NCBI GenBank assembly: GCA_049797655.1
Contig: JBARFX010000074.1
Coordinates: forward strand, 42,696 to 106,695
Reading direction: 5' to 3'
Length of the DNA: 64,000 nt
Source of the DNA: Candidatus Acidiferrales bacterium
GTDB taxonomy: Bacteria > Acidobacteriota > Terriglobia > Acidiferrales > UBA7541
This document shows, piece by piece, positions 17,564 through 55,339 of this stretch (positions within the stretch are counted from its first letter, which is position 1; every line of letters begins with the position of its first letter). Both the position numbers and the translations under genes were made by a program. The notes beneath the pieces are model-generated. The model was given only the letters and a program-made list of their open reading frames with translations. It was not told where the DNA came from and did no database searches.

Positions 17564-18232
17564 ATGCTTAAGTTAGATGCAAGACCAAATTCGCTTGAAG
17601 TCGATTTCAAAAAGTCGGCGATCGTCGTGGTGGACATGCAGAACGCTTTTGCAAGCAAGGGCGGAATGCTCGACATCGCGGGCGCCGATATCACCGACGC
17701 GCCGCGCGTGATCTGCGTAATTCGCTCCGTTCTGGATGCCGCTCGCCGCACGGCAGTGCCGGTCGTCTACCTGCGCATGGCCTATAAGCCGGACCTGAGC
17801 GACAGCGGCGGTCCAAGCTCACCCAACTGGCACAAGGAATTGGCGATGACGCTTATGTGCTCGCGACCCGAACTGAAAGGCAAAGTCCTCACCGAGGGAA
17901 CATGGGACGGCGAAATCGTCGAAGACCTCGCGCCTCAGCCAGGCGATCTCGTCATCACCAAGACGCGATATAGCGGCTTCGCAGGCACATCGCTCGATTC
18001 CCAGCTTCGCATGCGCGGCGTCCAGTATCTCTTTTTCGCTGGCATCGCCACAAATGTTTGTGTCGAATCCACGCTTCGCGATGCTTATTTTCACGACTAC
18101 TGGCCGATATTGCTCTCCGACGCTGCCATGCCCGCCGGTCCCGCGGCAGCCCACGACGCGACGCTGTTCAACGTAGAATCATTCTTCGGCTGGACCATGA
18201 CATCGCAGAAGCTCGTAGAACATTTGAGGTGA
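17564..18232 (+). CDS. Isochorismatase-family cysteine hydrolase, RutB-like (ureidoacrylate-type amidohydrolase)
   Basis: Appears alignable by eye along its length with E. coli RutB as I recall it: SAIVVVDMQNAF..KGGMLD, GGPSSPNWHK, QPGDLVITKTRYSGF, and GIATNVCVESTLRD with the catalytic Cys. Confidence 0.8.
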   Translation: MLKLDARPNSLEVDFKKSAIVVVDMQNAFASKGGMLDIAGADITDAPRVICVIRSVLDAARRTAVPVVYLRMAYKPDLSDSGGPSSPNWHKELAMTLMCSRPELKGKVLTEGTWDGEIVEDLAPQPGDLVITKTRYSGFAGTSLDSQLRMRGVQYLFFAGIATNVCVESTLRDAYFHDYWPILLSDAAMPAGPAAAHDATLFNVESFFGWTMTSQKLVEHLR

Positions 18233-20262: not shown

Positions 20263-20278
20263 TAAGAATTCTATTTGT

Positions 20279-20301
20279 CGGGCGGGTTTTAGACCCGCCC
20301 G
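20279..20301 (+). promoter_or_regulatory. Strong intercistronic hairpin between HyuA-like 1 and the gamma subunit gene
   Basis: CGGGCGGGT TTTAG ACCCGCCCG gives a 9-bp stem and a 5-nt loop. It follows the tandem stops TAG TAA, and no U-tract follows it. Confidence 0.6.
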
Positions 20302-20333
20302 CTTGCGCGAATGCCGTGCCAGGAGAATTGCAC

Positions 20334-20720
20334 ATGCCGTCCGATCACAGAAACCGCCTCCGCATCACCGAATATCTCGATCTCGATCTCGACCGCGAGC
20401 AATGGCTCTGCAATCGTTGCGGCCATGTAATCGGTCCCGCGCGAGAGAACTACAAGCGAGGCTGCCTCCTTTACGATCGTGACCCGCGCGAAATTCACCC
20501 GCCGCTCGTGCCCGGCGCGTTCAGCTTTTCTCCCGACCCGCTCTGGGTTCGCATCGTCGAGTTTTACTGCCCCGGTTGCGGCACGCAGGTCGAAACCGAA
20601 TACCTGCCTCCGGGCCATCCCCTCACGCACGATATCGAAATTGATTTGGACAGCCTGAAAGAACGCTTGCGGAACGGCGAATTCGTAATCCGCGACCAGA
20701 GGCTCGAGGCAACTGAATGA
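20334..20720 (+). CDS. Acetone-carboxylase gamma-subunit-like zinc-binding small subunit
   Basis: ATG at 20334 preceded by AGGAG. CNRCGH...YCPGCGT gives a Cys4 arrangement. The size and the ...VEFYCPGCGTQVETEYLPPGHPLTHDIE... sequence fit the Acetone_carb_G family. Confidence 0.75.
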   Translation: MPSDHRNRLRITEYLDLDLDREQWLCNRCGHVIGPARENYKRGCLLYDRDPREIHPPLVPGAFSFSPDPLWVRIVEFYCPGCGTQVETEYLPPGHPLTHDIEIDLDSLKERLRNGEFVIRDQRLEATE

Positions 20721-22837: not shown

Positions 22838-22862
22838 GCCCAGGCAGATTTGAAGGAGGCAC

Positions 22863-24923
22863 ATGCCCATCCCAACAACGGCTGAAAAACTCGCGTGGTT
22901 AAAACCTGCGCCCGCGACGCCATTCGAAAAAGAATGTGCCGCCAAGGTCCGCGCCGGCGACTACGAAATCGGCGTCCAGATCACCAACGACATCCTCGAC
23001 GAAGCAATGGAAGTCTTCGTCCGTTCGTCACGCAGCTACTTTGGAGTCTCCGGCGATTCGATGGTCGCAATTTTCACTGCCAATGGAGATCTGGTGAACG
23101 CGTCCTGCGGAACGTACCTCCACGCTATCATTCAACCGATCGTCATTAAGTTCATTCAGAAATATTACGCGGAAAATCCCGGCATTCGCGAAGGAGACAT
23201 CTGGTACACCAACGACGCACTCTATGGCGGCATCCACAATCCCGATCAGGTGGCGCTGATGCCGATTTTCCACAAAGGTACGCTGATCGCCTGGTCTACG
23301 GCTGCGCTTCACACCACGGAAACCGGCGCCATCGAGCCGGGCGGCATGCCCGTCAGCGCGAAATCGCGATTCGATGAGGGCCTCAACATGCCGCCGATCA
23401 AAATCGGCGAGAACTATGAACTTCGCAACGATTTCCTTGAGTTTTACGCAGTCTACGGACTGCGCGCCCCGGCCATGTTCATCTCCGATCTTCGCGCTCG
23501 CTGCACAACTGCTGACCGTGTCCGCGTCCGCCTTCTCGAGCTCGCCGACAAGCGCGGCGGCGAGTTTGTCGTCGGCCTCCTCCGCAAGATGTCGGACACT
23601 GCCGAAGTTGCCGCGCGCCAGAAAATAAAGGCGCTCCCCGACGGCAAATTCCGCGCGGTTGTCTTCAATGATGCAATCGGCTGGACGCCCGCGCTCGTCC
23701 GCGCCTGCTATCTCACACTGATCAAAAAAGGCGGCACGCTCACTTTCAACTTCGAAGGCACTTCCCCCGAAAACCCGTCGTCGTACAACGTCCACCCGCA
23801 AGCCGTCGTCGGTCACATCGCCAATTTCATGTACGAATATGTTTTCCACGATCTGCCCATTTGCAGCTCCACTTTCGCGCCCATCGATTTTGTTTTCCCG
23901 GAAGGCATCATTTTGAATCCCGGGCGGATGGCTGCGACAAGTTGTTGCGTCTATATCGGCATGCAGTGCCGCTGCGCCACGCACAACAGTTTCGCGAAGA
24001 TGACTTTTTCGAGCGCCGGCCTTTGGCGCCAAGTCGCAGCTTCTCCCGGCAGCCAGCACACCGCGCAGATCTGCGCCGGCCATTCGCAATGGAATCTCGC
24101 GGTGTCAGACGTGCTGTCGTTCTCACTCAACACGCAGGGGCAGGGCGGCCGCGCTTCTACGGACGGGATGGACGCGTACGGTTTCGCGTGGTGCGCCTTC
24201 GGACGCGCCCCTGACTCCGAGCAGGTTGAAAGCGAGCTGCCCGTCACCGTCACCCTCTCGCAACACTGGAAGGATTCGTGCGGTCCCGGGCGCCATCGCG
24301 GGGGCTCCGGCGGAGTCCAGCAGTGGATGATTCACAAGGTTCCTAACCTGGTCTCACTCTGCATGGGCAATGGCAGCAAAGTTCCGCTAGGTCAGCCCCT
24401 TTTCGGGGGCTACGCTTCGGCGCCGATTCCTGGCATCAGCGTTCGCAAGGCGGATTTGCTGAAACAAATGCGTGACGGAAACCCGAAACTCTCGATGGAC
24501 AGCCGTGACATCCTTGAAAACACCACGGTACACGGCGACTGGACCTTCGAGCTGATCGCGCGCACTCCGAAGCTCTACGACGAGGGCGATCTGCTCTTCG
24601 GTTTTAGCGGCGGTGGACCCGGCTATGGTGACCCTCTCGAACGCGAGCCGGTTGAGGTCCTCGAGGACCTCAAAAAGAAAATTGTCTCCGATTGGACGGC
24701 CCGGAACATCTACCACATTGTGTACGACCCTGAGCGCCAGAAGCTCGATGTTGAAAAAACAAAGGAGCAGCGCGACAACGAACGCAAGAGCCGCCTCGCC
24801 CGCGGCAAATCCTTCGACGAGTTTCACAAGGAGTGGAATAAAACGAGCCCTCCGGCTGACATTTTGCAATTCTACGGCCGCTGGCCCGACGCCCAATCCC
24901 TGGGTCCCGTTTTCCGTCAGTAG
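22863..24923 (+). CDS. Hydantoinase B / oxoprolinase-family subunit
   Basis: RBS GAAGGAGG. 686 aa. C-terminal HyuB-type motif GFSGGGPGYGDPLEREPVEVLEDL...IYHIVYD. Confidence 0.85.
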   Translation: MPIPTTAEKLAWLKPAPATPFEKECAAKVRAGDYEIGVQITNDILDEAMEVFVRSSRSYFGVSGDSMVAIFTANGDLVNASCGTYLHAIIQPIVIKFIQKYYAENPGIREGDIWYTNDALYGGIHNPDQVALMPIFHKGTLIAWSTAALHTTETGAIEPGGMPVSAKSRFDEGLNMPPIKIGENYELRNDFLEFYAVYGLRAPAMFISDLRARCTTADRVRVRLLELADKRGGEFVVGLLRKMSDTAEVAARQKIKALPDGKFRAVVFNDAIGWTPALVRACYLTLIKKGGTLTFNFEGTSPENPSSYNVHPQAVVGHIANFMYEYVFHDLPICSSTFAPIDFVFPEGIILNPGRMAATSCCVYIGMQCRCATHNSFAKMTFSSAGLWRQVAASPGSQHTAQICAGHSQWNLAVSDVLSFSLNTQGQGGRASTDGMDAYGFAWCAFGRAPDSEQVESELPVTVTLSQHWKDSCGPGRHRGGSGGVQQWMIHKVPNLVSLCMGNGSKVPLGQPLFGGYASAPIPGISVRKADLLKQMRDGNPKLSMDSRDILENTTVHGDWTFELIARTPKLYDEGDLLFGFSGGGPGYGDPLEREPVEVLEDLKKKIVSDWTARNIYHIVYDPERQKLDVEKTKEQRDNERKSRLARGKSFDEFHKEWNKTSPPADILQFYGRWPDAQSLGPVFRQ

Positions 24924-25028
24924 AGCAACGATGCGCGTTACGTCTCGGCCGTTTCGACATTGGCCCCGGGGAGAGGCTCAGATCCGTCCGAGGCAGACTT
25001 CGCAGATCCAAAGAGTGTGGCACCACGA

Positions 25029-26036
25029 ATGACTGACCAACTCACTTCCCGCCAGCTGGTGAAGGGCCTGCTGCAAGGAATTCCGCAACCGCGTCCGCTG
25101 ATCGTCCCGATCGTATTTTCTCTAGGCGCAAAAATCGAAAATCTCTCGCTTCGCGCCTTCCTCGAAAACCCCACTAAAATCTCCAACGCTCTTCGCCAAA
25201 TCCGCTCGCAGCTCCGCACCGATGGCGTCTCCTGCTATTTCGATCCGCTCCTGGAGCTGGAAGCGCTGGGGGGCACAGTTCGATGGGACTCGGCAAATCA
25301 AACTCGCACGATTCATTGGCTCGAAACCGCCCGGAAAGGCGACGTGCCCCCGGGCCTGCGTTCACCAGAAGAAGCTGCGAACAGTCCCCGCGTAAACGCC
25401 GCCGTCGAGGTGATTCGCCGGCTCAATTCCCTTTTCCGCGATGAGCCGCTCCTCATGGCGGGCGTCTCCGGACCTTTCACAGTGGCTGCCCGTCTGACCC
25501 AACTCGACGCCGAAAAAAACCTGCGCGCGGAAGACTTGCAGGAACCCGCCCTCGAAGCAGCCGCAGCCACAATCACAAAAATCGCATCGTCTCTCGTCGA
25601 AGCCGGCGCCAATTTGATTTTCATCCGCGAGGATGTGTTGCCGCCACTATCCGCTGACAATTGCCAGTCTTGGGCTTCTCTCCTCGCGCCTGTTTTCAAC
25701 ATCGTCCGGTTCTACGGTGCTCTCCCCGTTCTCCAGCTCGCACGCGGTACGGCAACTGCAAGCAACTGTGAATTGATCCTGCAGCAGCCATGGGATGCAA
25801 TTCTTTGCTCGACGTCTCCTGATTTTGTCATGCGGGCAGCAAACAATCCCGAAACCTCCGCATACGGACTTGCATTCCCGATGGAAGCTATCCAAAGTGG
25901 CGATTCTTCTAGCGCACCGAACCCGGTTTCCTCTAAGTTCAAAGCCGCGCTTTTGACAACCGACGGTGACATCCCCGTTACGACCAACCTAAAGCTACTA
26001 ATGAAGACTTTCGACCTACTCGCTCGTCAAGCCTAG
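25029..26036 (+). CDS. Uroporphyrinogen-decarboxylase (URO-D)-like family protein
   Basis: The overall pattern resembles URO-D/MtaA-like TIM-barrel proteins (N-terminal ...RPLIVPIVFSLGAKI..., ELEALGGTVRW, GPFTVAARL, and an IFIREDV acidic segment). The assignment is weak. The start is uncertain, with no clear RBS, and could be as early as 24960. Confidence 0.4.
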   Translation: MTDQLTSRQLVKGLLQGIPQPRPLIVPIVFSLGAKIENLSLRAFLENPTKISNALRQIRSQLRTDGVSCYFDPLLELEALGGTVRWDSANQTRTIHWLETARKGDVPPGLRSPEEAANSPRVNAAVEVIRRLNSLFRDEPLLMAGVSGPFTVAARLTQLDAEKNLRAEDLQEPALEAAAATITKIASSLVEAGANLIFIREDVLPPLSADNCQSWASLLAPVFNIVRFYGALPVLQLARGTATASNCELILQQPWDAILCSTSPDFVMRAANNPETSAYGLAFPMEAIQSGDSSSAPNPVSSKFKAALLTTDGDIPVTTNLKLLMKTFDLLARQA

Positions 26037-36783: not shown

Positions 36784-37701
36784 CTACAGCGTCTTCACTT
36801 GCTTCACGGCCCGGTCAAGCGATTGGCGGCTTTGGAAAAAATCTCTCCACGGGTCTGTTTGCTTGGCACGTTGCGCGAAGTTCCCGATATTGAATTTCGA
36901 AGGAACAATCCCGGGCTTCACCTCCGCCCAGGAAAGCGGGGTCGACACGGGAGCTTTCGGTTTCCGCCGCACCGAGTAAGGCATCACGACCGTCTGCCCA
37001 AATCCGTTCCGGAATGGATCGAGATAGACGCGCCCCTTCCGCGCCGCGATCGAATGCTCCACAGTCAGCTCATTTGAGTGTGCTGCCGCCACCCGGCCAA
37101 CGACTGCCTGCGCGAACGACAGCACGTCGCTCGCATCCGGTCCCACGCGAATCGGCACGAACACATGCATTCCGCGGCTGCCCGATGTTTTCGGAAACGA
37201 CACAAGCTTCAGGGCATCAAGCCCTTCCTTTATGTGAAGCGCCGCTCTCGCAGCATCGGCAAATTCCCCGGATTCAGGATCGAGGTCGAAGCACACCCAG
37301 TCGGGCTGTCGCGGAGAACTCGCGCGCCCGCCCATCGCGTGAACGGCAATGCATCCGAGATTCACAAGGGCAATTTGCGTCTCAAGGGTTCCTCCAACCA
37401 CATAGTTCGTGAACCGCCGCCGTCCTCCCTCGTTCTCAATTCGCTTTGAAGGCGTCCCGGCCGGCATGCCCTTCGGCATTTCCTTCTGATAAAAACATTC
37501 CCCGGCCAGTCCATCCGGGCACCGTTCCATAGTTAACAGGCGATCCCTCACGTACGGCGCAAGCTTGGGGAATATCGCTTGATAAAACTCCGCCAGATCG
37601 ATTTTAGTGTAGCCCTCGTCAGCCCAGAAAATTTTGTCGGGGTTCGAAATGTTCACCGGCAATCTCGCCGTGCCCTTCGCTTCCTTCTTCGTCTTCTTCA
37701 T
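36784..37701 (-). CDS. ligD: NHEJ polymerase/primase (LigD Pol domain) as a separate ORF
   Basis: ISNPDKIFW..., DLDP, KTSGSRGMHVFVPI, and YSVRRKP..VSTPLSWAE are LigD-Pol/AEP primase motifs. ATGA overlap with the ligase stop. Confidence 0.9.
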   Translation of the reverse strand: MKKTKKEAKGTARLPVNISNPDKIFWADEGYTKIDLAEFYQAIFPKLAPYVRDRLLTMERCPDGLAGECFYQKEMPKGMPAGTPSKRIENEGGRRRFTNYVVGGTLETQIALVNLGCIAVHAMGGRASSPRQPDWVCFDLDPESGEFADAARAALHIKEGLDALKLVSFPKTSGSRGMHVFVPIRVGPDASDVLSFAQAVVGRVAAAHSNELTVEHSIAARKGRVYLDPFRNGFGQTVVMPYSVRRKPKAPVSTPLSWAEVKPGIVPSKFNIGNFAQRAKQTDPWRDFFQSRQSLDRAVKQVKTL

Positions 37702-38621
37702 TTTTGCGGCTCCGGCAGCACAACTTCCTTTGGCTTCTTGTCGTCGCGCAAACCGAGAAAAACAGGCTGGCGCAATTTCATATCCGCCGTCCATTCTTGA
37801 AACGAAATCTGCGCCACAAATTTCGGAGCAAGGAACATTGCGCCCTTCTCCCTTGGTGGATCCACAAACGCCGGGCGGTCGCTTACGAAAGGCCGAAACT
37901 TCTTGTACAAGGAACTCAGCGAGGTCTCGTCGAATCCGGTGCCCACCTTTCCGACGAAGTGCAATTTCCCGTCCTGATACGCTCCCAGCAACAGCGCACC
38001 AAAATGTTTTCGCGCTCCTGCTGGTTTCGTAAATCCGCCGATCACAAACTCATCCTCCTGGTGCGCTTTCACCTTCAGCCAATCTCTCGATCGTCCCTCC
38101 GCATAGCGAGCAGAAAGATCCTTTGCTACCAGTCCCTCAAATCCCCGCCGCTTCGCCTCCCGGAACGCTTCCAATCCGTTCTTCGCAAGCCGTCGCGAGG
38201 GGATCAGAATGCCGCCGGCTCCAAGCGATTTCTCCATCGCCTCGCGCCGCACCGAAAGCCCCTCTCGCCGCAGATCCTTCCCGTCGCGATACAGGCAATC
38301 GAAAACGGCATACGCAGCCTCGCCTTTCCCTTGTTGCAACAACTGAAACCGGGAAACTTTCTTGCGATCGAACACCACAACCTCGCCATCCAGCAGCAGC
38401 GTCGCGGGCTTCAGCGCGCGCACCGCATCCGCGATCCGTGGAAATCCGCTCGTCCGGTCGATTTTGTTCCTCGAGATCAATCGAACGCGGCTCCCTTCCT
38501 TGTACGCGAGCATCCGAATCCCGTCGTACTTCTCCTCGTAGGCCCATCCGGGCTTGTCGAACGGCTCGCGAACAAGAGTCGCCAGCATCGGTTGAACGCG
38601 AAATGGAATTCGATCGCTCAC
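37698..38621 (-). CDS. ligD: ATP-dependent DNA ligase (LigD ligase domain) as a separate ORF
   Basis: VQPMLATLV, adenylation motif I EEKYDGIR, LLLDGEVVVFD, and EGLVAKD. Confidence 0.9.
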   Translation of the reverse strand: MSDRIPFRVQPMLATLVREPFDKPGWAYEEKYDGIRMLAYKEGSRVRLISRNKIDRTSGFPRIADAVRALKPATLLLDGEVVVFDRKKVSRFQLLQQGKGEAAYAVFDCLYRDGKDLRREGLSVRREAMEKSLGAGGILIPSRRLAKNGLEAFREAKRRGFEGLVAKDLSARYAEGRSRDWLKVKAHQEDEFVIGGFTKPAGARKHFGALLLGAYQDGKLHFVGKVGTGFDETSLSSLYKKFRPFVSDRPAFVDPPREKGAMFLAPKFVAQISFQEWTADMKLRQPVFLGLRDDKKPKEVVLPEPQK

Positions 38622-38662: not shown

Positions 38663-39352
38663 TTAAGCTCGCCGCTTACGGGGACGCGCCGCGGCTGCCG
38701 GCTTTGTTCTTTTTGAAGTTGTCTTGGACAGTGCCTTGCCTGTGGGGTCGCCCGTTGCGGCCACTTCCACGTCGCCTCCACCGTCTCGCGCAATATCTGC
38801 GAGAAGACGGTTACTCAGCGCCGACCTCGGTTCTGTTATCGTCAGGTTTTTCGACGATGCGAACTTGTCGCGGTGTTTTATCAATAGCCACGAAGGTTTA
38901 CTGCTTCCCCCGAAGCCTCGCGTCCGCACTAGCACCCACGATCCTTTCAACTTCCTGCCGTGGAGCGTGAACTTCAAATCGCCCTTCTCGAGCGCCACAC
39001 TCGGGTCCGGCTGCTCCGGCTCCCAAGTTCCTGTGTCCCACACCATCACCGTTCCCCCGCCGTACTCGCCCTCCGGTATCACGCCCTCAAAACTCGCGTA
39101 TTCAATCGGATGATCTTCCACCTGCATCGCCAGTCGTTTGACCGCCGGATCGGTCGACGGGCCCTTCGGCACGGCCCAGGAGAGCAGTGTTCCCTTCCAC
39201 TCCAATCGAAAATCGTAGTGCAAACGCGAGGCGCGGTGCTTCTGTACGACGAAAATCAGCGACGGATCCTTTCGATTGTTCGCTTCGCCCTTACCCGCCG
39301 GCTCCGGTGTCACTCCAAACCGCCGTTTCTTCCGATATTCTTTTAAAGTCAT
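38663..39352 (-). CDS. ligD: LigD 3'-phosphoesterase (PE) domain protein with a basic C-terminal tail
   Basis: LKEYRKKRRFGVTPEP, FVVQKHRASRLHYDFRLE, LLSWAVPKGPS, and EDHPIEY. The tail is ...KRTKPAAAARPRKRRA. Confidence 0.9.
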   Translation of the reverse strand: MTLKEYRKKRRFGVTPEPAGKGEANNRKDPSLIFVVQKHRASRLHYDFRLEWKGTLLSWAVPKGPSTDPAVKRLAMQVEDHPIEYASFEGVIPEGEYGGGTVMVWDTGTWEPEQPDPSVALEKGDLKFTLHGRKLKGSWVLVRTRGFGGSSKPSWLLIKHRDKFASSKNLTITEPRSALSNRLLADIARDGGGDVEVAATGDPTGKALSKTTSKRTKPAAAARPRKRRA

Positions 39353-44680: not shown

Positions 44681-45022
44681 ATGGCCGACGACAAATGTGC
44701 GGACAACACACCGGCAGCGCCGTCTCCGCAACCCGCCGGCCAAACCCTCCGCATGGTCAAATGTGTGAAGTATGGGCGCGAACTACCCGGCCTCGATCGC
44801 ATTCCCTGGAAGGGTGAAATCGGCAAACGTGTCTACGAAAACGTTTCCAAAGACGCGTGGAAGCTCTGGCTCGAGCACTCCAAAATGATCATGAACGAAT
44901 ACCGCCTAAACCCTCTCGACCCGAACTCTCAAAAAATCATGGAAGAGCAACTCGAACAATTCTTTTTCGGCGAAGGCGCCAAGCTTCCTGAAGGATACGT
45001 CCCCCAGAAATCCAAAGGCTAA
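44681..45022 (+). CDS. YggX-like Fe(2+)-trafficking / oxidative-damage-protection protein with a short N-terminal extension
   Basis: AGGAGG 6 nt upstream of ATG 44681. The core [54 protein letters not shown] aligns by eye with YggX. Confidence 0.7.
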
Positions 45023-45169: not shown

Positions 45170-46504
45170 TCAATTTTCAATTTTCCGCGTCACCGGATGC
45201 TCCACGGGCAACCGAGGTGAAAAGCTGAATTCCAGCTTCGCGTGCGCTGTCCTCAGCGCCTTCTCCACAAATGCAGCCGACTTTCCCCGTGCGAAAATAA
45301 ATCCCAGATAGCTCGCGCCTTCCGGCCAAGCCGCCACGTAATCCCTCAACCGCGCCGTAATCCGAATCTCCGTCACGCCCGCAGTTTGCTCTGCATCCTC
45401 GATCCCGTTGACGCCCTCAAGAATCCCGCTCCGCGGCACTGGGATCATCATTACGCCAGACGCTGCTTCCTCCCGTGCCGAGTCGCTCTCCGGAAGCCCC
45501 AGCGCATGACGCAATACAAGTTCCTCGAGCGAAATCAGCTCTGCTCCAAACCGCAGCGCCCGCGAACATAACCCGCCGATCGGCCGCGGTGCCACTTCGA
45601 GCACCCACGGTCCATCCTCATTCACACGAAACTCTGCATGAGCCGGGCCAGTCGTCAATCCGAGTGCCCCAATGGCCCGGGCAGCACATTCCGAGATCGC
45701 CGCCTGCACGTCAGCAGGCATGCGCGAAGGTGTCACGTAAATTGTCTCCTCGAAATACGGCCCCTCAAGCGGGTCGGGTTTGTCGAAAATCGCCAGCACT
45801 CGCAATCGTCCGCCGTCGATCAGCCCCTCCACCGCCACCTCGCGCCCCGGAACGTAAGTCTCGACCAAAAGACGGTCCAACCCCGGCTCGCGCAACACTC
45901 GAATTTCCGGAGAATCGAGTAGCATGCGAATTCGCCGCACCGCACCCGCAAATTCTTCCGCGTCGTTCGCCCGAATTACGCCCTGGCTAGCCGCCAGCGA
46001 CAACGGCTTCACCACGCACGGAAATTTCACGCGCGCAAGTACGCCGCTCAAATCATCCGACGGCGAAAACGCAAAAAAGTCCGGCACCCGAACCCCGGCC
46101 GCCCGCAATACCTCTCGTTGCCGAAGTTTACTCCGGCAAATCTCCGCCGCCTCTGGCGGATTCCCCGCGATCCCAAGCGCTTCGGCTGCATATGCCGCCG
46201 TCGGCGTCGGCCGGTCCCCCAGCGCGATTACAGCACCTACCGCATTCCCTCGATCCGCCTTCGTGCCCAGCGCCCGCACAATTTCCTCAGCCGCCTCCCG
46301 TGGCTTTTCAAAGTGCAGCGCCAACGCCTCATCCCCCCAGGGATTCTCCATCTGATGGCACCGGTCAGTTCCAAACACTACCGCCACTCCCAATTTGTCC
46401 GCCGCCTCCCCAAACCCCCGTGTCTGATACCCCATCTTGCTCGCCAGTATCAGCACTCGCTTTGTTTCGTTCTGTTCGACTTGCGCTGTTTTATCTGCCG
46501 TCAT
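45170..46504 (-). CDS. ATP-grasp domain protein (ligase of unknown specificity)
   Basis: VVKPLSLAASQGVIRA, LVETYVPGREVAVEG, and GPAHAEFRVNEDGPWVLEVAPRPIGG. It starts 35 nt downstream of the extended radical SAM ORF. Confidence 0.75.
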   Translation of the reverse strand: MTADKTAQVEQNETKRVLILASKMGYQTRGFGEAADKLGVAVVFGTDRCHQMENPWGDEALALHFEKPREAAEEIVRALGTKADRGNAVGAVIALGDRPTPTAAYAAEALGIAGNPPEAAEICRSKLRQREVLRAAGVRVPDFFAFSPSDDLSGVLARVKFPCVVKPLSLAASQGVIRANDAEEFAGAVRRIRMLLDSPEIRVLREPGLDRLLVETYVPGREVAVEGLIDGGRLRVLAIFDKPDPLEGPYFEETIYVTPSRMPADVQAAISECAARAIGALGLTTGPAHAEFRVNEDGPWVLEVAPRPIGGLCSRALRFGAELISLEELVLRHALGLPESDSAREEAASGVMMIPVPRSGILEGVNGIEDAEQTAGVTEIRITARLRDYVAAWPEGASYLGFIFARGKSAAFVEKALRTAHAKLEFSFSPRLPVEHPVTRKIEN

Positions 46505-46539
46505 CAGTGTTTATCTGCGGTCCCCGGGATTCTACACAC

Positions 46540-48015
46540 CTAAACAAAGGTGTCCGCCTGCTTCAACTTCTTCCTGGCCTCCGCGATGGGAACCAACTGG
46601 TCCCCGGTCGGTTCCGCTCAACAATACCAGGGCTCATTCAAGTACGGGATCGCTGCCCGCGCCACGAGTGCGGGTAGAGCGCTCCGCGTAATCCCTCCAC
46701 CTGCCGCCGCAAACGCCGCATCCTCCACTCGCTCGAAAATCCGCGCCCGCGCACGCCCCGTCTTCTCCCCCGAATGCACAATCCCCTGAATCTCCTCGCA
46801 CAACCGGTCCACGCGCGGATCCGCGTGCTTCCACGGATATACAAGCGCCGCTTCGTCAAAATCCCCCACGCCTCGCCGAATCTCCTCCAGCTCCAAAAGC
46901 CGCGACCCGGCTGGAATCAACAACCGGATCGCAAGCTGTATCGGCGCCACATTCTCAACCAGCTCCTGCTCCCGCAACACCGCGAGCAATTCGCAATATC
47001 CTTCCAGCGTAGTCCACGGCGTAAACGGAACAAAAGTGGGCTGCAGCGCGAGCCCTGCCTCTCGAAACAATTCCACGGCTCGCAAAAAGTCCGGCCGCGT
47101 ATGATTCTTCTCGAACTTTCCAAGCACCGCGTCATCCACGCTCTCGATCGCGCTTGTCACAAACAAGCACCCTGTCGCGCGCAACCTCGCAACGCAATCC
47201 GAATGCTTCAATAAATGCTCCACCTTGATCGTCACGTCGTACGTGAGCCGTGGAAATTCGCGGTGCAATTCTTCGACCAATGGCATCGCGTGCCCCACGC
47301 CATTAAAGAAATCCGGATCGCCAAACGTGATGTGCTCCGCGCCTGCCGCTACCTGCTGCCGAATATCCGCCAGCACCACCTCCCGCTCCACCACGCGAAA
47401 CGTCCCGTTGTAAACCGGCACAATCGGACAATGCCGGCACAAATGTTTGCACCCCCGGCTCGCCTCCGTGTACCCAACCGTCCGCTTTTCGCCGCCGGGC
47501 ATTACCAGCCGCGCATACTGTTCGAGCAGCACCATCCCGCTGCGGTCCGGCGTCAAAAATTTCTGTCGCGAAAGTGAAACCACCGGCTCTGCCTGCTTAT
47601 CGCCATCACCACTCGCGCCGCTCGCAGCGTTCGAATCCTTCGCCCCAATCCCGCCCAATCGCTCTGCAAGCGACCGCAGCCCTTCCTCGAATTCCCCGCC
47701 AAGAATCGTCCCCACTCCCAATTCGCGCAAATAAGCCTCATTCACCGGCGCATACAACCCGTAAAAACACACATGGGCCCGAGGGTTAAGTTCTCGAAGC
47801 GCAGGCACCAGCGCCGCGGCCAACCGTGTCGCCGTATGCATCGGCACGTAAAACGCAATCAAACCCGCCGCTCGCACCACATCTTCTGGCAAAGTCTCAC
47901 GCGACAGGTCGCAACACGTCACGGTGGCTCCGCCCGCTCTCAGCCACGCCGCCGGCGACGCCAACCCAAACGGCTGCCTCCCCAGCTCGTACGTTGAAAT
48001 CAGAACGACATTCAT
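46540..48015 (-). CDS. B12-binding-domain radical SAM protein, probable selenoprotein (in-frame UGA at 46620..46618 read as Sec; the track ORF stops there)
   Basis: ATG 48015 preceded by AAGGGG. N-terminal B12-binding-like domain [18 protein letters not shown].... Radical SAM cluster motif [13 protein letters not shown]. The 3' end reads ...[36 protein letters not shown], with a hairpin 2 nt after the UGA. Confidence in the radical SAM call is high. Confidence in the Sec extension is about 0.55. Confidence 0.8.
46589..46615 (-). promoter_or_regulatory. Candidate bacterial SECIS hairpin downstream of the in-frame UGA
   Basis: On the minus strand: UGA GC GGAACCGAC CGGGGACCA GUUGGUUCC. This gives a 9-bp stem (8 Watson-Crick pairs plus one G-U) and a 9-nt G-rich loop, starting 2 nt after the UGA. 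Confidence 0.5.
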
Positions 48016-48163
48016 CAATTGCCCCTTCGCGAAATTATCCCACGCTTTCGCCCCGCCTCGGCATACGCGTCTCTCATCGCTCGTCACCACTTTCCTACTC
48101 TACGGAACGGGCTACCCTTGCGGCATTTCACGCGGACGGACGTTCACACTCTGTTCGTCCCGG

Positions 48164-48192
48164 TTACCTTCCCCTTCCGCCTGCGCTACAAT
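48164..48192 (+). promoter_or_regulatory. Candidate sigma-70 promoter for acnA
   Basis: TTACCT, 17 nt, then TACAAT. The -10 element ends 35 nt upstream of the acnA ATG. Confidence 0.3.
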
Positions 48193-48226
48193 AACCTGTG
48201 ACGCATACAGGAGCCTTGATTCGCGC

Positions 48227-50908
48227 ATGAGCCCATCACCCAAGAATTCCTTCGGCACCCGCGCCGCCCTCAAAGTCGGCAGCGACTCCTTCGAAATCTA
48301 CCGCCTCGACGCCCTCGAGCGCTCCGGTACCGCTAAGCCATCTCGCTTGCCCTTCTCGCTCAAAGTCCTCCTCGAAAATCTTCTCCGTCACGAAGATGAT
48401 CGCTTCGTCCGCGCGGAAGACATCCGCGCCCTCGCCACTTGGGATCCCACCAGTGCGGCAGGCGCTTCCGAAAAAGAAATTTCCTTCATGCCCGCACGTG
48501 TCCTGCTCCAGGATTTTACGGGCGTTCCCGCTGTCGTTGATCTCGCCGCCATGCGCGACGCAATGCGCCATCTTGGCGGCGACCCCAAAAAAATCAATCC
48601 GTTGCTTCCGGCCGAGCTTGTCATCGACCATTCCGTGCAAGTAGATAAATCGGGCGCCGCAAACGCCTTTCTCTTCAACGCCGACCTCGAAATGAAACGC
48701 AATATCGAGCGCTACGCTTTCCTGCGCTGGGGCCAAAAAGGTTTTCAGAATTTCAAAGTTGTTCCGCCGGACACCGGCATATGCCACCAGGTGAATCTCG
48801 AGTATTTAGCTCGCGTCGTTTTCAAGAAACAGGAAAACGGCGTCTGGACTGCTTTCCCCGATTCGCTCGTCGGCACCGATTCGCACACCACAATGGTCAA
48901 CGGCCTCGGTGTTTTTGGCTGGGGCGTTGGCGGCATCGAAGCCGAAGCCGCGATGCTCGGCCAGCCTCTCTCGATGCTGATTCCCGCTGTCGTCGGTTTC
49001 AAACTCCACGGACGCCTTCCTGAAGGCGCCACCGCGACCGACCTCGTTCTCACTGTCACGGAAATTTTGCGTAAGAAAGGCGTCGTCGGAAAATTTGTCG
49101 AATTCTACGGCACAGGACTCTCGAGCCTCACTCTTCCCGACCGCGCCACTATCGCGAACATGGCGCCCGAATACGGCGCGACAATGGGTTTCTTCCCCGT
49201 TGATTCCGAAACGCTTTCCTATCTGCGTTTCACCAGCCGCAGCGAGGATCAAGTGCGCCTCGTCGAATCCTATACGAAAGAACAGGGACTCTTCCGCACC
49301 GACCAGACTCCCGATCCCATTTTCTCCGATCGCCTCGAGCTCGATCTCGCGACCGTCGTTCCTACGATGGCTGGACCAAAGCGCCCACAGGACAGCGTCC
49401 CGCTCACCCAGGCAAAAACCTCCTTCGAAAAATCGCTCGCTGGCGCCGCGCCCAAGCACGTCAGCGTGAAAAGCAACGGTGACAATTTCGAACTCGCCGA
49501 CGGCTCCGTCGTCATCGCTGCCATCACCAGCTGCACCAACACCTCGAATCCATCCCTTATGCTCGGCGCTGGACTGCTCGCGAAAAAAGCCGTCGAGCGC
49601 GGCCTCACTTCCAAGCCCTGGGTGAAAACCAGCTTCGCGCCCGGCTCGAAAGTCGTCACTGACTACATCGAAAAAGCCGGCCTCTGGCCTTATCTCGAAA
49701 CCCTGCGGTTCCATCTCGTCGGCTACGGCTGCACCACCTGTATAGGCAATAGCGGGCCGCTTCCCGATTCCATCGCCGCCGCGATCAAGGACAACAATCT
49801 CGTCGCTGTCTCCGTTCTCAGCGGCAATCGCAATTTCGAAGGTCGCATCAACGCTCTCTGCCGTGCGAACTATCTCGCGTCGCCTCCGCTCGTCGTCGCC
49901 TACGCCCTCGCCGGACGCATGGACATCGACATCGTCAACGAGTCGCTTGGCAACGACAAATCCGGCAAGCCCGTATACCTGCGCGACATATGGCCCACGC
50001 CGCAGGAAGTAGAAACCACGATGCGCGCATCGGTTACGAGCGAAATGTTCCGCAAAGAGTATGCCGACGTCTTCACCGGTGACGCACACTGGCGCGCCCT
50101 GCCAATTCCCGAAGGCGATCTCTACGCCTGGGATTCGAAATCCACCTACATCAAGAACCCGCCGTATTTCGAAGGCATGTCGAAAAACCCATCCGTGCTC
50201 GCCGATCTCCACGGCCTTCGCGCTCTCGCCGTTCTCGGCGATAGCGTCACCACCGATCACATCTCCCCCGCCGGCTCGATTCCCGCAGACACGCCGGCCG
50301 GGAAATATCTGATCGCGAACGGAGTGCAGCCGAAAGATTTCAATTCCTACGGAGCGCGCCGCGGCAATCATGAAGTGATGATGCGCGGCACTTTCGCCAA
50401 CATCCGCTTGAAGAACATGCTCGCGCCCGGCACCGAGGGTGGCTGGACGATTCACCAGCCCAGCGGTGAACAAATGAGCATCTACGACGCCGCCATGAAG
50501 TACCGCGACGAGCACGTTCCGCTGATCGTAGTCGCTGGAAAAGAATACGGCTCGGGCTCTTCGCGCGACTGGGCCGCCAAAGGAACGATTCTTCTCGGCG
50601 TCCGCGCCGTGCTCGCTGAAAGTTTCGAGCGCATCCATCGCTCGAACCTCGTAGGCATGGGCGTCCTCCCGCTTGAGTTCCTGCCGGGCGAAACTCCCAA
50701 GACGCTCGGCCTCACCGGCCTTGAAATCTTCGAGATTGGCGGCCTCGCCCACAATTTCGAGCCGCGCAAAACAATGAAAGTCCGCGCCCGCGACGCCGCC
50801 GGCAAGGAAAAACATTTCAACGCCGTCGCGCGCGTCGACACCCCGTTCGAAGTCGCCTATTACCAGCACGGCGGAATCCTGCAGTACGTCCTCCGCCAAA
50901 TGCTCTAG
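48227..50908 (+). CDS. acnA: Aconitate hydratase A
   Basis: [74 protein letters not shown], and SGNRNFEGR. The track ORF start at 47924 is a 5' artefact that overlaps the divergent gene. Confidence 0.95.
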
Positions 50909-51052: not shown

Positions 51053-54000
51053 ATGAGGCCCCCAACCCCAGCCCAGAAGTGCAGTGGTGTCTTCCCGGTT
51101 TTTTGCAAGCCCGTCCGCCGCATCTCCTTGATTCTGCTACTCGTGGCCATGTGTCCCGTCTTCGCCTCGGCGCAGACGGTTCCGAAGCGAGCGCTCGTTA
51201 CGCAGCCCGTCGAGGACACAAAGCTGACGGTTCTCCGCGGCAACACGTATCCGCTGGCTCGCGCCGAGTTCGATCGCGGCGCGGCTCCGCCCAGTCTGCC
51301 GATGCAGCGCATGCTCCTTGTTCTGAAGCGTGCCCCTGAGCTAGAAACAGCGCTCGAAGCGCTGCTCGACCAGCAGCAGGACAAATCGTCTCCGAGCTAT
51401 CATGCGTGGCTCACACCTGAGCAATTCGGTCAGCAATTCGGCCCCGCCGATCAAGACATCCAGGCCGTCACATCGTGGCTCCAGCTACAGGGCTTCGAGA
51501 TCGCGCAAGTGTCGAACGGGCGCACGGTGATCGAGTTCTCCGGCACTGCGGCACAAGTGCAGCGCGCATTCCATACGGAAATTCATAAATTCTCTGTCAA
51601 CAACGAAGACCACTGGGCCAACGCCAGCGACCCGCAAATCCCGACGGCGCTCGTGCCTGCTGTCGCGGGAGTGCTTACGCTGCACAACTTTCCTCGGCAT
51701 GCGATGAATCACATGGTCGGTACGTTTAAGAGAACCAAAGGAACGAGCGCGTTAACTCCGGCGGGTCCGCTCTTTACGCTGCCGAATTTTTTTGGTCAAG
51801 ATACAGCTTATGGCGTGGGACCCTTCGATTTCGCAACCATCTACAATGTGTCGCCACTCTGGAATGCTACTCCGCGCGTCGTCGGCACAGGACAAACGAT
51901 CGCGATCGTCGGTGAAACGGATGTCGATTTCGTCGATTTGCAGAAGTTTCGAACGCTTTTCGGAATCACGTCGAATGATCCCGTGATGATCGTGGACGGT
52001 CCCGATCCGGGATTGCAGCCTGACGAGATCGAGTCGGATCTGGATTTGGAGTGGTCGAGCGCGGTGGCGCCAGGTGCGGCGATTAAGTTCGTAGTTGCCG
52101 CGACAACGGACACGACGCTGGGTGTGGATCTCGCCGCGCAATACATCGTGGACCACAATCTTGCACCCGTGGTCAGCGAGAGTTACGGAATCTGCGAGGC
52201 CGCGCTGGGAACCGCGGGCAATCAATTCTTCAATCTGCTCTGGCAGCAGGCGGCCGCGCAGGGGATGTCCGTCTTTCTTGCGAGCGGAGACAGCGGCTCG
52301 GCCGGCTGCGATCGTGACAATCCCGCTCAATTCGGTCTGCAGGTTAGCGGTTTCGCGTCGACACCGTACACCGTAGCTGTAGGCGGGACTGATTTCAACG
52401 ATCTTACCAATCCCACGAACTACTTCAATCCGACGAACGACGCGCATCAAGCCTCGGCCAAATCGTACATTCCGGAAATGACCTGGAACGACTCGTGCAC
52501 GAATGCCGAATTCTCGATGTTGACGGGAACTTCAAATGCAGAATCCAATTGCAACAATCCTGGGTTATCAGGTGCAGTTGCGGCAACGGGAGGCAGCGGG
52601 GGCAAGAGTTCGTGCACGACGGGGGATGGACAGGACATCGTTAGTTGCTCGGGCGGATATGTCAAGCCGATCTGGCAGACCGGTACCGGAGTACCGAATG
52701 ACGGGAAACGCGATATCCCCGACGTTTCGCTTTTCGCGAGCAATGGGTTTAATGGCAACTTCTACGTGATCTGCTCCAAGAACATTACGGGTTCCTACTG
52801 TGACAGCTCCGACCCGAATGGCACGGTTGTCGGCATCGGAGGCACGTCTGCTTCCGCTCCTGCGTTTGCGGGAATCATGGCGCTTATAGATCAGAAAACG
52901 AATTCGCGGCAGGGGAATCCGAACTACCTTCTGTACAAGCTGGCGGCACAGCAGCCGGCAAGCGGCTGTAATTCGAGCACGCCTCCAACGGGTACCTGTG
53001 TGTTCAACGACGTGACCAACGGCACGATTGCGATGCCGTGCTTTACGGGAAGCACGATCGATTGCCGTACGAATATCAACGGCGATCAATTCGGAGTGCT
53101 GACCGGCTATGCCACGGGAGTCGGGTACGATCGCGCGACCGGGCTGGGAACGGTGAACGCGGCGAATCTGGTAAGCGCGTGGGTTACGGCGGCTGGAGCC
53201 TCGAAAGGGAGCGCTACGACACTTTCGATCACACCGGCGCCGATGAACATCACGCATGGAGCGACTTCCAACGTAGTGATCTCGGTAGCTCCGGCTCCCG
53301 GCGGCACGGGAACACCGGGCGGAGAAGTATCGCTGGTGACGAGTACGGGAATGGGAGCGGGCAGCTTCCTTCTTACTGATGGGAGCGCGACGGGCAGCAT
53401 CGTTGACTTGCCCGGCGGCACGTACACCGTGACCGCGCACTATCCGGGGGATGCTACTTTCGGAGCAAGCGATTCGACGGCAGTTTCCGTGAAAGTGACG
53501 CCGGAAGCGAGCAAGGCGACGGTCGCGTATGAGCTTTTCGATCCCATCTCAGGGAATCTGACGAATCCGAACGCTACAACGGCGACGTTTGGCGTCTCTC
53601 CATCGTTGCTGCGGATCAACGTGACGAGCCAGGCGGGTGACGCCTGCGCGGGTAACACGCAGGGCACCACGGGATGTCCGACGGGAACTGTGACTCTGAC
53701 AGACAACACGAAACCGCTGGACGGCGGGACGTTTGCGCTCAACAGCAACGGGTACGCGGAAGATCAACTAATCGATCTTCCCGGCGGCGTGCACAATCTA
53801 AAGGTTATATACCCTGGCGACAATAGTTACAGCGCCCCCACTCCAGCCACCGACGTGATAACGATCACTCCGGCGGCTACGACCCTCAGCGGCGATAATA
53901 GTCAAGTCACATTCTCAGGCGCAGAAACCCTACTAGGTGCAGCCATAACTGCCCAAAATATCTATTCAGATATCGTTCCGACGGGTACAGTAACAATGTC

Positions 54001-55339
54001 GCTGGGTTCGACTGTTATCGGAAGTTCTTCGATTTTCATAAATTCATTTACTTCGCATCAAGTCGACGCAGGGGCGAACGTTCTCGCACCGGCCGGCACT
54101 TTCAAGCAAGGCCAGAATAACTACGCGATAAAGTATTCCGGTGATCCGAGTTATTCCTCTTCTACCGGAACCGCCACCATCACATTGCTCTACATTACAA
54201 CCACGACAATGGTCTCCTCCAATACAACGATTCAGGCTGGCCAGAGCGTTACATTCACCGCAACTATGGCCGCTACGCCCACAGGAGGAGCGCCGGTCAC
54301 AGGAACAGTACAATTTCTGTTGGACGCTTCCAATCTAGGCGCTCCGGTGACCGTTGTGGGCGGGCAAGCCACACTCACTACCTCGGCGCTACCATTCGGC
54401 ATTCATGTAATCGGAGCACATTACTCGGGCGACGCAAACAACAATCAATCCAATAGCGAAGGCTTATTGGAAACCATAAATTCACTTAGTTCAATGACAT
54501 CGGTCACGGCTTCGAGCTCGTCAATCCAGCAGGGGCAACTAGTGACTTTTACGATAAAGGTCGCTGGCGTGCAGCCAGGAGGCCCGGTTCCAACCGGATC
54601 TTTAACGGTCCAAACCACTGCGAATGTAGGCGTCCCTGCGCTTAATCTCGATGCTAGTGGACAGAGCAGTTTTGGGGTTATCAATTTTCCCGCCGGCATT
54701 TTCACCGTCACGGTTGTTTATGGTGGAGATAAGTTTTATACGGGTTCCTCGGGAAATACTTCGATTACAGTTGTTGCGAGCCCTGATTTCAGCGTGGTTG
54801 CGAATCCGAACTCAATCACAATTACAAGACCCGGCCAATCCGGGAGCACGATGCTGACGCTTACGGCGATGAACGGCCTTACCGGAACATTTGCCCTCGC
54901 GCCTCAATGTACAGGGTTGCCGTCGGAGAGCACGTGCAGCGTGTCGCCTTCGAGCGTGACGTTTAGTCCGAGCACGATGACGGCGAACGTGATGCTCACG
55001 GTTGCAACGATGGCGCCGTCGAGAGTTGCGCCGGGGCGTAGGGTGCACCCGACCATAACGGGACCAGGGCTCGCGATCACGTTCAGTGTGCTGGCGCTTG
55101 TCGCGATGTTTGGTTTTCTGCGGAAGCGGCGCGGACTTGAATTCGCGCTGAGCCTAGTCGTGTTTGCGGCGCTGCTTTCGATTGCTGCGTGCGGAGGCGG
55201 CGGTGGTGGTGGAGGTGGCGGAGGCGGGGGCGGCGGGGGGAATCCCGGCACGCCGGTGGGTTTGGACAACAATGCGCGAGTTTCGTTTACGATCGGATCC
55301 GCATCGCACTCGGTGGGATTGTCAGTGAACGTCGAGTAG
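51053..55339 (+). CDS. Secreted S53 (sedolisin/kumamolisin-type) serine peptidase fused to multiple bacterial Ig-like repeats and a C-terminal double hydrophobic segment
   Basis: Signal peptide RRISLILLLVAMCPVFASAQ. Pro-kumamolisin activation-domain-like region ...YHAWLTPEQFGQQFGP..DIQAVTSWLQ.... Catalytic-domain motifs ESDLDLEW, SESYG, ASGDSGSAGC and GGTSASAPAFAG. About 6-7 Ig-like repeats with the ...YPGD/YSGD/YGGD... pattern. See findings for the C-terminus. Confidence 0.8.
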   Translation: MRPPTPAQKCSGVFPVFCKPVRRISLILLLVAMCPVFASAQTVPKRALVTQPVEDTKLTVLRGNTYPLARAEFDRGAAPPSLPMQRMLLVLKRAPELETALEALLDQQQDKSSPSYHAWLTPEQFGQQFGPADQDIQAVTSWLQLQGFEIAQVSNGRTVIEFSGTAAQVQRAFHTEIHKFSVNNEDHWANASDPQIPTALVPAVAGVLTLHNFPRHAMNHMVGTFKRTKGTSALTPAGPLFTLPNFFGQDTAYGVGPFDFATIYNVSPLWNATPRVVGTGQTIAIVGETDVDFVDLQKFRTLFGITSNDPVMIVDGPDPGLQPDEIESDLDLEWSSAVAPGAAIKFVVAATTDTTLGVDLAAQYIVDHNLAPVVSESYGICEAALGTAGNQFFNLLWQQAAAQGMSVFLASGDSGSAGCDRDNPAQFGLQVSGFASTPYTVAVGGTDFNDLTNPTNYFNPTNDAHQASAKSYIPEMTWNDSCTNAEFSMLTGTSNAESNCNNPGLSGAVAATGGSGGKSSCTTGDGQDIVSCSGGYVKPIWQTGTGVPNDGKRDIPDVSLFASNGFNGNFYVICSKNITGSYCDSSDPNGTVVGIGGTSASAPAFAGIMALIDQKTNSRQGNPNYLLYKLAAQQPASGCNSSTPPTGTCVFNDVTNGTIAMPCFTGSTIDCRTNINGDQFGVLTGYATGVGYDRATGLGTVNAANLVSAWVTAAGASKGSATTLSITPAPMNITHGATSNVVISVAPAPGGTGTPGGEVSLVTSTGMGAGSFLLTDGSATGSIVDLPGGTYTVTAHYPGDATFGASDSTAVSVKVTPEASKATVAYELFDPISGNLTNPNATTATFGVSPSLLRINVTSQAGDACAGNTQGTTGCPTGTVTLTDNTKPLDGGTFALNSNGYAEDQLIDLPGGVHNLKVIYPGDNSYSAPTPATDVITITPAATTLSGDNSQVTFSGAETLLGAAITAQNIYSDIVPTGTVTMSLGSTVIGSSSIFINSFTSHQVDAGANVLAPAGTFKQGQNNYAIKYSGDPSYSSSTGTATITLLYITTTTMVSSNTTIQAGQSVTFTATMAATPTGGAPVTGTVQFLLDASNLGAPVTVVGGQATLTTSALPFGIHVIGAHYSGDANNNQSNSEGLLETINSLSSMTSVTASSSSIQQGQLVTFTIKVAGVQPGGPVPTGSLTVQTTANVGVPALNLDASGQSSFGVINFPAGIFTVTVVYGGDKFYTGSSGNTSITVVASPDFSVVANPNSITITRPGQSGSTMLTLTAMNGLTGTFALAPQCTGLPSESTCSVSPSSVTFSPSTMTANVMLTVATMAPSRVAPGRRVHPTITGPGLAITFSVLALVAMFGFLRKRRGLEFALSLVVFAALLSIAACGGGGGGGGGGGGGGGGNPGTPVGLDNNARVSFTIGSASHSVGLSVNVE
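55193..55240 (+). repeat. (GGN)16 tract encoding a run of 16 glycines
   Basis: gga ggc ggc ggt ggt ggt gga ggt ggc gga ggc ggg ggc ggc ggg ggg, immediately after the ...LSIAAC codons. Confidence 0.95.

Follow-up and report, generated by a model that had tools for sequence, protein, structure and literature searches.

A radical SAM gene crossed by a UGA codon

The stretch of DNA analysed here, called the window throughout, is 64,000 nucleotides (nt) long and comes from a Candidatus Acidiferrales bacterium (assembly GCA_049797655.1, contig JBARFX010000074.1, forward positions 42,696-106,695). On its minus strand lies a gene for a radical S-adenosylmethionine (SAM) enzyme whose frame is crossed, close to its end, by a UGA codon that is very probably recoded to selenocysteine (Sec). 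The open reading frame (ORF) begins at ATG 48015, a start that agrees both with the beginning of the NCBIfam profile NF040546 and with an identical GenBank protein (P0001), and runs to ...NEPWYC, where the Cys465 codon TGT (46623..46621) is followed by TGA (46620..46618). The codons GCG GAA CCG (A-E-P) come next, giving the motif ...EPWYC-UGA-AEPTGDQ, and the frame stays open for 25 codons up to a TAG. A preliminary description of this DNA, made from its letters alone, had reported the ...NEPWYC ending at TGA 46620..46618, the A-E-P that follows and the 25 open codons, and all of this is borne out on the sequence. In window coordinates, the gene is composed as follows.

46540..48015, minus strand: radical SAM coding sequence, ATG at 48015, 491 codons plus TAG, with UGA as codon 466
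47428..47451, minus strand: radical SAM cluster motif C189-x3-C193-x2-C196, visible in the sequence itself, its columns invariant in alignments A1 and A3
46621..46623, minus strand: Cys465 codon TGT, the partner of the predicted Sec466 in a C-U dyad, its column invariant in alignments A1 and A3
46618..46620, minus strand: in-frame UGA, inferred selenocysteine codon for residue 466, where relatives have either TGA or a Cys codon
46543..46617, minus strand: post-UGA tail of 25 codons, an open frame closed by TAG 46542..46540

An ORF listed for aconitase on the opposite strand (47924..50908, plus) extends about 280 nt upstream, over the start of the radical SAM gene; because the AcnA profile match starts well inside this ORF, the overlap is an artefact of ORF calling.

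For profile searching, U was replaced by C in the full-length protein, which then matches NF040546, named "CUAEP/CCAEP-tail radical SAM (seleno)protein" in NCBIfam, with 638.1 bits (E=7.8e-192, cutoff 500). The alignment places profile positions 1-466 of 468 on residues 3-474 and so continues beyond the UGA position. The family name given in the preliminary description belongs to a real NCBIfam entry, and the gene scores above its cutoff. Pfam Radical_SAM (PF04055) is matched at 41.5 bits (cutoff 29.5), and a PDB sequence search with the radical SAM protein gave no match. The C-terminal region consists of a variable linker of about 45 residues followed by an invariant motif, E-P-W-Y-C-U-A-E-P-T-x-x-Q, and the C-[U/C]-A-E-P tail also occurs in homologs down to about 35% identity, among those whose C-termini were read. 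The family is widely spread: species-representative genomes give at least 579 matches, and at 50% identity there are at least 629 clusters.

That a CUAEP-tail radical SAM protein contains selenocysteine is already known at the database level, through the name of the curated NCBIfam model. The identical protein P0001, 465 residues long and derived from a Candidatus Acidiferrales metagenome-assembled genome (MAG), stands in GenBank under that name and ends at Cys465. The NF040546 family is mentioned in a preprint (Haft 2022, bioRxiv 10.1101/2022.07.06.499078), the only place where it turned up in the searchable literature, in keeping with the earlier remark that its function is uncharacterised; a 2026 review listing prokaryotic selenoprotein families does not contain it. 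What is added here is the correct selenocysteine insertion sequence (SECIS) element with its covariation, the spread of the family, its nearly even division into Sec and Cys forms, its sister relation to ArsL with a common ligase partner, and a cultured carrier of the Sec form. The practical value of the finding itself lies mainly in annotation: in the databases this protein and roughly 90% of its close relatives end 26 residues early, without the Cys-Sec pair.

Probable recoding of the UGA and its hairpin

The codon that follows ...EPW[YF]C was compared across a genome set of 80 related loci, nearly all from Acidobacteriota MAGs. It is TGA in 72 of them, TGC in six and TGT in two, a pattern that chance would not produce. 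Of the 120 closest database proteins, P0001 included, 107 end exactly at ...PW[YF]C, a truncation by gene callers that the preliminary description had anticipated, and ten carry Cys at the UGA position. The ten read WYCCAEPTG[DE]Q...D[AT]FV, with a tail of the same length as the read-through peptide of the window. Alignment of Cys orthologs reading WYCCAEP through and beyond the UGA had been proposed as a check, and it is the whole tail that aligns. Divergent representatives of the family, drawn from 50%-identity clusters and reaching down to about 35% identity to the query, divide into 39 Sec-type truncations and 38 Cys forms.

These comparisons bear directly on the simplest alternative, namely that the UGA is a true stop, that the protein ends at Cys465, and that downstream conservation and the hairpin described below reflect, for example, a regulatory or terminator-like element ahead of the ligase gene. 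Database gene calls do end at the UGA, and no Sec machinery is seen in the window. Against a stop, the tail comprises 25 open codons in 68 of the 71 TGA loci with a complete tail (L070, in which a contig end cuts the tail, is left out), and it varies synonymously: codons +1 to +4 (GCN, GAR, CCN, ACN) differ at third positions only. TGA-locus tails open with a conserved AEPTxxQL and in most cases close with D/E-x-F-V, they match the tails of the Cys forms residue for residue, terminal D[TA]FV included, and the NF040546 profile itself runs past the codon. The hairpin, moreover, is gone exactly where TGC or TGT replaces TGA. We regard termination at Cys465 as hardly credible.

A further regularity concerns the codon immediately upstream. 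Cys465 is encoded by TGT in all 67 unique Sec-form genome loci, against a background of 25%, and likewise in five distant loci and in Thermomicrobium roseum; Cys-form loci mostly have TGC at the equivalent codon. TGT ahead of the UGA may be a context requirement for Sec insertion.

Two overlapping hairpins can be drawn in the RNA downstream of the UGA.

46588..46605, minus strand: hairpin B, a conserved SECIS-type hairpin, GGGGACC (46605..46599) with GGUUCCC (46594..46588), loop AGUU (46598..46595)
46589..46615, minus strand: hairpin A, the 9-bp stem of the preliminary description, GGAACCGAC (46615..46607) with GUUGGUUCC (46597..46589), 9-nt loop

The two are mutually exclusive and, taken alone, nearly isoenergetic (A, -12.7 kcal/mol; B, -12.3 kcal/mol), and the minimum free energy fold of the 57-nt region includes hairpin B. 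Hairpin A is foldable, all nine of its pairs being canonical. It is evolutionary comparison, over 65 distinct Sec-form relatives and 500 shuffles, that separates them. For hairpin B, 90.5% of cells are paired, three pairs have changed on both sides (18 cells), and none of the 500 shuffles matches the observed values; one G-C pair, for example, has become A-U ten times and C-G five times. These double changes link synonymous shifts in a Gly codon to Pro-to-Ser and Pro-to-Ala replacements. Half of the relatives have an A opposite a C midway along the stem. For hairpin A, 79% of cells are paired, a value reached by 402 of the 500 shuffles, and there is no covariation. Hairpin A was rejected as the SECIS element on this ground and because its spacing of 11 nt from UGA to loop lies outside the accepted 16-37 nt. 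Of the earlier proposal, then, two parts stand, that the 9-bp stem can form and that a SECIS element follows the UGA; the register was wrong, and the conserved structure is hairpin B.

Hairpin B, with a 7-bp stem and 19 nt from UGA to loop, satisfies the bacterial SECIS (bSECIS) consensus (Zhang and Gladyshev, in PMC13188914), which specifies a loop of 3-9 nt, a stem of 4-16 bp, a UGA-loop distance of 16-37 nt, and a G at loop position 1 or 2 with a G or U after it; here the G is at loop position 2 and a U follows. Synonymous sites are fixed at the loop and the closing pairs of this hairpin. Leu at +8 is encoded by TTG in 67 of 67 loci, as compared with 17.6% of the Leu codons in window genes, and Gln at +7 by CAG in 67 of 67, whereas the eight Cys-form loci use other codons. 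Distant Sec-form genes from four clades have a hairpin at the same position built from unrelated stems (AAGAGUC, AGAAGC, GGAGAGC, UGAGC), and a Cys-form Dehalococcoidia gene has no such hairpin. A scan of metagenomes with a nucleotide signature for W-[FY]-C-UGA-A-E-P returned more than 120 loci, from which 80 unique sequences were analysed. Among these Sec-form genes the 5' stem arm takes 43 distinct sequences; the stem reaches 5 bp or more in 79 of 80, the loop begins at nt 23-24 in 74, and the loop consensus is A-G-[G/U]-U. Stems of at least 6 bp are formed by 95% of the real Sec-form sequences as against 4.8% of synonymous recodings; Cys-form loci reach 1-3 bp.

The hairpin also speaks to a second alternative, in which the UGA is read through and the residue inserted is not Sec, owing to a suppressor tRNA or to reassignment of the codon. 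Published tRNA-Sec-like allo-tRNAs of Acidobacteria, proposed as possible nonsense suppressors, lend this idea some substance. UGA is, however, an ordinary stop in the same genomes: most TGA-locus tails themselves end in TGA, and because they do, the codon is not reassigned there. A suppressor would also leave unaccounted for a position-fixed hairpin of bSECIS consensus, under selection at the RNA level, that accompanies every UGA form in several phyla, as well as the identity of the alternative residue, which is always Cys, the classic Sec/Cys signature. We consider read-through of this kind very unlikely.

Several searches returned results that weigh against recoding. ARAGORN found no tRNA, and hence no tRNA-Sec, in the 64-kb window; NCBIfam scans of about 40 window ORFs revealed no sel genes; tblastn with Escherichia coli SelA, SelB and SelD found none in the window and 2.3 Mb of fetched loci; and Rfam, run at gathering thresholds on the whole window and permissively on 46450..46750, recognised no SECIS or other family. 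The sole Rfam match, Hammerhead_II at 13.8 bits (E=3.9), was treated as chance. A tblastn search with SelD against plasmids had no Thermomicrobium among the matches listed, which is uninformative since the chromosome of T. roseum lies outside that collection.

Taking both sides together, we consider it highly probable, from comparative sequence evidence, that gene 46540..48015 encodes a 491-residue CUAEP/CCAEP-tail protein in which UGA is recoded to selenocysteine under the direction of a SECIS element at 46605..46588. We posit that the UGA at 46620..46618 would serve as a Sec codon and not as a stop, and that the hairpin, which starts 12 nt past it, would direct the recoding as the site bound by the Sec-specific elongation factor SelB. 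Cys465 and Sec466 would then sit side by side on a flexible C-terminal arm of the product, with the 25-residue tail after them.

A UGA-form member is also present in a cultured organism, T. roseum DSM 5159, on its megaplasmid NC_011961.1 (locus L209, 8935-10440; TRD_RS12835, WP_012643191.1). RefSeq ends this protein at ...ESWFC, a hairpin GGACCC-GUC-GGGUCC occupies the expected SECIS position, and the neighbouring genes encode a pyridoxal-phosphate-dependent aminotransferase and a major facilitator superfamily transporter.

The ligase partner and the gene neighbourhood

Downstream of the radical SAM gene lie two further genes that recur in its relatives.

45170..46504, minus strand: L-amino-acid-ligase-type ATP-grasp gene, 35 nt past the TAG of the radical SAM gene
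44681..45022, plus strand: YggX / Iron_traffic-type "oxidative damage protection protein" (NF003817, 125.8 bits, cutoff 74), convergent with the ligase gene

The ligase matches ATP-grasp_4 with 112.4 bits and LAL_C2 with 51.6 bits (cutoff 29.4), and aligns over its full length (residues 33-410) with the L-amino acid ligase BL00235 (PDB 3VOT, E=2.6e-43); it has no equivalog-level match in NCBIfam. Its gene is likely the operon partner of the radical SAM gene. In 70 of 74 genome loci a ligase gene follows the radical SAM gene on the same strand; among the 39 metagenome loci with enough flanking sequence it is downstream in 25, and on the same strand in 23 of these. It also adjoins the radical SAM gene in Mesorhizobium, where it is upstream, and in marine Dehalococcoidia, where the two genes are convergent. 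The pairing thus occurs in three gene arrangements and at least three phyla. The YggX/Iron_traffic gene is downstream in 67 of 72 genome loci and also in the distant loci L087 and L088.

Other neighbours are clade-specific. An HgcAB-like corrinoid/ferredoxin fusion follows the Sec-form gene directly in L141 (3785-5338, plus strand) and L145 (8510-10414, minus strand), scoring 339 and 332 bits against NF043039 (cutoff 285), and in L145 the fusion also includes the corrinoid-associated methyltransferase CpaM (NF043040). Few loci have this association, two to three of those sampled. NifU or Fe-S biogenesis genes adjoin the radical SAM gene in some loci. In Mesorhizobium sp. M1380 (L081, 4991-9419) a 289-residue protein and an MbnB_TglH_ChrH protein (PF05114) are encoded directly upstream of the ligase/radical SAM pair, and DUF169 genes adjoin the radical SAM gene in about six loci, L081 and about five from metagenomes. 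In L086 (5644-6981), a pyridine-nucleotide disulfide oxidoreductase (Pyr_redox_2 plus Pyr_redox_dim) is encoded just upstream of the Sec-form gene, its end 20 nt away; it could be a reductase dedicated to the Cys-Sec pair. The HgcAB-like, MbnB/TglH-like, disulfide-reductase, NifU and short-chain dehydrogenase/reductase neighbours were each set aside as main evidence on account of this clade specificity, and CofD/CofC were dropped as partner genes, being present in only a few loci.

Elsewhere in the window, a five-gene cluster on the plus strand (18058..26036) resembles the acetophenone carboxylase subunits ApcA-E with all scores under the equivalog cutoffs, and its predicted product is a related complex of the hydantoinase/carboxylase type. 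The polymerase and 3'-phosphoesterase domains of LigD, which belong to non-homologous end-joining, are encoded as separate genes on the minus strand (36784..37794 and 38663..39352). A plus-strand gene (51053..55339) encodes a protein of 1428 residues in which the one feature recognised is a C-terminal anchoring domain of the "lipo-invert" type (NF058595).

Kinship with ArsL and a possible chemistry

The preliminary description had called the enzyme B12-binding, a property that is not established. Pfam B12-binding (PF02310) reaches 18.4 bits in the window protein, under the cutoff of 32.1, and an ArsL-family protein likewise gives a sub-threshold match to this domain (29.3 bits). An AlphaFold model built on a natural Cys-form homolog, P0085 (predicted local distance difference test score 78.9, predicted template modelling score 0.81), comprises a radical SAM barrel preceded by an N-terminal Rossmann-like domain; in the PDB it matches AprD4 best (E=2e-15), and OxsB, CysS and TsrM come next. 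These last three bind cobalamin, whereas AprD4, to our knowledge, has such a domain yet does not use cobalamin. The C-terminal arm of the model has low confidence, which is consistent with a flexible or mobile arm. The papers on ArsL, the activity of which was reconstituted in vitro, make no mention of cobalamin for this enzyme.

ArsL is, as judged by sequence, the closest characterised relative of the window protein. Its family, NF040542, is the second-best NCBIfam match (278.8 bits over profile positions 2-407 of 423), and a direct comparison of the window protein with an RCCLKC-tail protein shows them to be 34% identical over 420 residues (E=2e-81); an ArsL-family protein of Alicyclobacillus ends in ...MKRCCLKC. 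From SAM, ArsL generates a 3-amino-3-carboxypropyl (ACP) radical, which it transfers to As(III) bound by the three Cys residues of its C-terminal RCCLKC tail; when the tail is removed, product formation is lost and SAM cleavage is kept. An ATP-grasp gene is common to the clusters of both families. Among four ArsL-family clusters (Alicyclobacillus L210 on pAACI01, Priestia L211, Pantoea L212 and Bacillus cereus L213 on pAH820_272), ATP-grasp_4 is found in all four and LAL_C2 in three, and the ATP-grasp protein of the Alicyclobacillus cluster is 26% identical to the window ligase over 348 residues (E=3e-21). We found no role reported in the literature for the ATP-grasp protein of arsinothricin clusters. 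The same four clusters encode a GTP-binding protein in every case and an aquaporin/MIP channel in three, and a small AhpD-like gene of the "carboxymuconolactone decarboxylase family" is present in three, Pantoea being the one without it.

By analogy, we tentatively suggest that the enzyme could work like ArsL, with its product then ligated by the downstream L-amino-acid ligase. The [4Fe-4S] cluster held by C189, C193 and C196 would reductively cleave SAM to an ACP radical, and the Cys-Sec dyad would act as the RCCLKC tail of ArsL does, holding a thiophilic substrate (a metalloid, a soft metal or a chalcogen) in the active site. A carbon-heteroatom bond would form on the held substrate to give a non-proteinogenic amino acid, which the ligase would join to another amino acid. 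A role of this kind for the dyad would be in line with the independent observation that CU motifs cluster in heavy-metal-handling proteins and the proposal that the CU pair contacts the heavy-metal atom (Haft, bioRxiv 10.1101/2022.07.06.499078). The HgcAB-like fusion encoded after the gene in L141 and L145 would fit as well.

A number of observations tell against an ArsL-like function. The ArsL score is under the family cutoff of 450, and the tail motif is CU/CC plus AEPT and not RCCLKC. No arsenic or mercury genes, including ArsM, ArsR, ArsN and aquaporin, were found among the window ORFs scanned, where the neighbours are the housekeeping genes acnA, zwf and glk; an ArsM/ArsR/ArsN/arsenite-channel context is present in the ArsL clusters examined. 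The ligase is not adjacent in about one third of the diverse metagenome loci, nor in T. roseum, and the window ligase is nearer to BL00235 (E=2.6e-43) than to the ATP-grasp protein of an ArsL cluster (E=3e-21). Finally, the window sequence does not tell cleavage to an ACP radical from cleavage to a 5'-deoxyadenosyl radical.

This last point leads to the main alternative to an ArsL-like mechanism, in which the protein is a conventional 5'-deoxyadenosyl-radical enzyme and its Cys-Sec pair serves as a redox-active selenenylsulfide arm, comparable to the GCUG tail of mammalian thioredoxin reductase. The pair would then donate electrons or a hydrogen atom, or would help to resolve a radical intermediate, instead of holding a metalloid. 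Most PF04055 enzymes make the 5'-deoxyadenosyl radical, the window has no metal-resistance genes, and a disulfide oxidoreductase gene close upstream of one Sec-form gene and NifU/Fe-S biogenesis neighbours in other loci would suit a redox role. Set against this are the relation across the whole catalytic core to ArsL, the closest characterised homolog, which makes no 5'-deoxyadenosyl radical, and the ligase partner held in common with ArsL clusters. On present evidence we think a redox arm possible and somewhat unlikely.

In another alternative, the tail is a sacrificial or carrier site on which sulfur or selenium is borne by the C-U dyad as a persulfide or selenosulfide and is inserted as a C-S or C-Se bond. 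This would be compatible with ACP-radical chemistry, with the interchange of Sec and Cys across the family, and with the Fe-S and NifU-type neighbours of some clades. No sulfur- or selenium-transfer gene adjoins the window gene, though, and ArsL, taken as the model, would suggest that an external substrate is bound, so that we judge a carrier role improbable.

Extending the ArsL-like mechanism to the family as a whole, one may picture it as a selenium-using sister of ArsL in which the Cys-Sec arm captures a thiophilic element, the ACP group is added to it and the ligase makes a dipeptide, a generalisation that we regard as doubtful and yet worth stating. If it were true, this chromosomal gene pair, which has housekeeping genes around it and is found in soil Acidobacteriota (hundreds of species) and several further phyla, would represent a widespread, undescribed pathway to organo-metalloid or organo-chalcogen amino acids and not a rare antibiotic cluster, and the ATP-grasp gene common to ArsL clusters would imply that compounds of the arsinothricin type are produced or kept in peptide form. 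An ArsL-like reaction that forms a carbon-heteroatom bond on a Cys-Sec arm, with a peptide ligation after it, offers a concrete, testable hypothesis for an uncharacterised family, and tractable carriers exist in T. roseum DSM 5159 (TRD_RS12835, Sec form) and Mesorhizobium sp. M1380 (WP_353046314.1, Cys form).

Set beside known systems, hairpin B resembles bacterial SECIS elements in lying inside the coding sequence just past the UGA and differs from them in having no Rfam match, and the window ligase shares the ATP-grasp_4 plus LAL_C2 architecture of the L-amino acid ligases BL00235 and BacD. The window protein and ArsL are alike in their sub-threshold N-terminal B12-like domain, their CxxxCxxC motif, their C-terminal Cys tail and the ATP-grasp/LAL-type gene in their clusters. 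They differ in that the window protein has a linker of about 45 residues ahead of its C-U-A-E-P tail, while in ArsL the RCCLKC motif directly follows the core; in the number and kind of ligands, two chalcogens as opposed to three thiols; and in context, chromosomal housekeeping genes as opposed to plasmid-borne arsenic islands. With the CU-dyad selenoproteins HgcA (in its Sec forms), the MerT family and KCU-star, the window protein has the adjacent Cys-Sec pair in common, on unrelated folds. Within NF040546, it shares the W-[YF]-C-[U/C]-A-E-P-T-x-x-Q motif and the CxxxCxxC core and shows no difference in kind from other members, belonging to a subgroup with a longer, 25-residue tail that ends in D[TA]FV.

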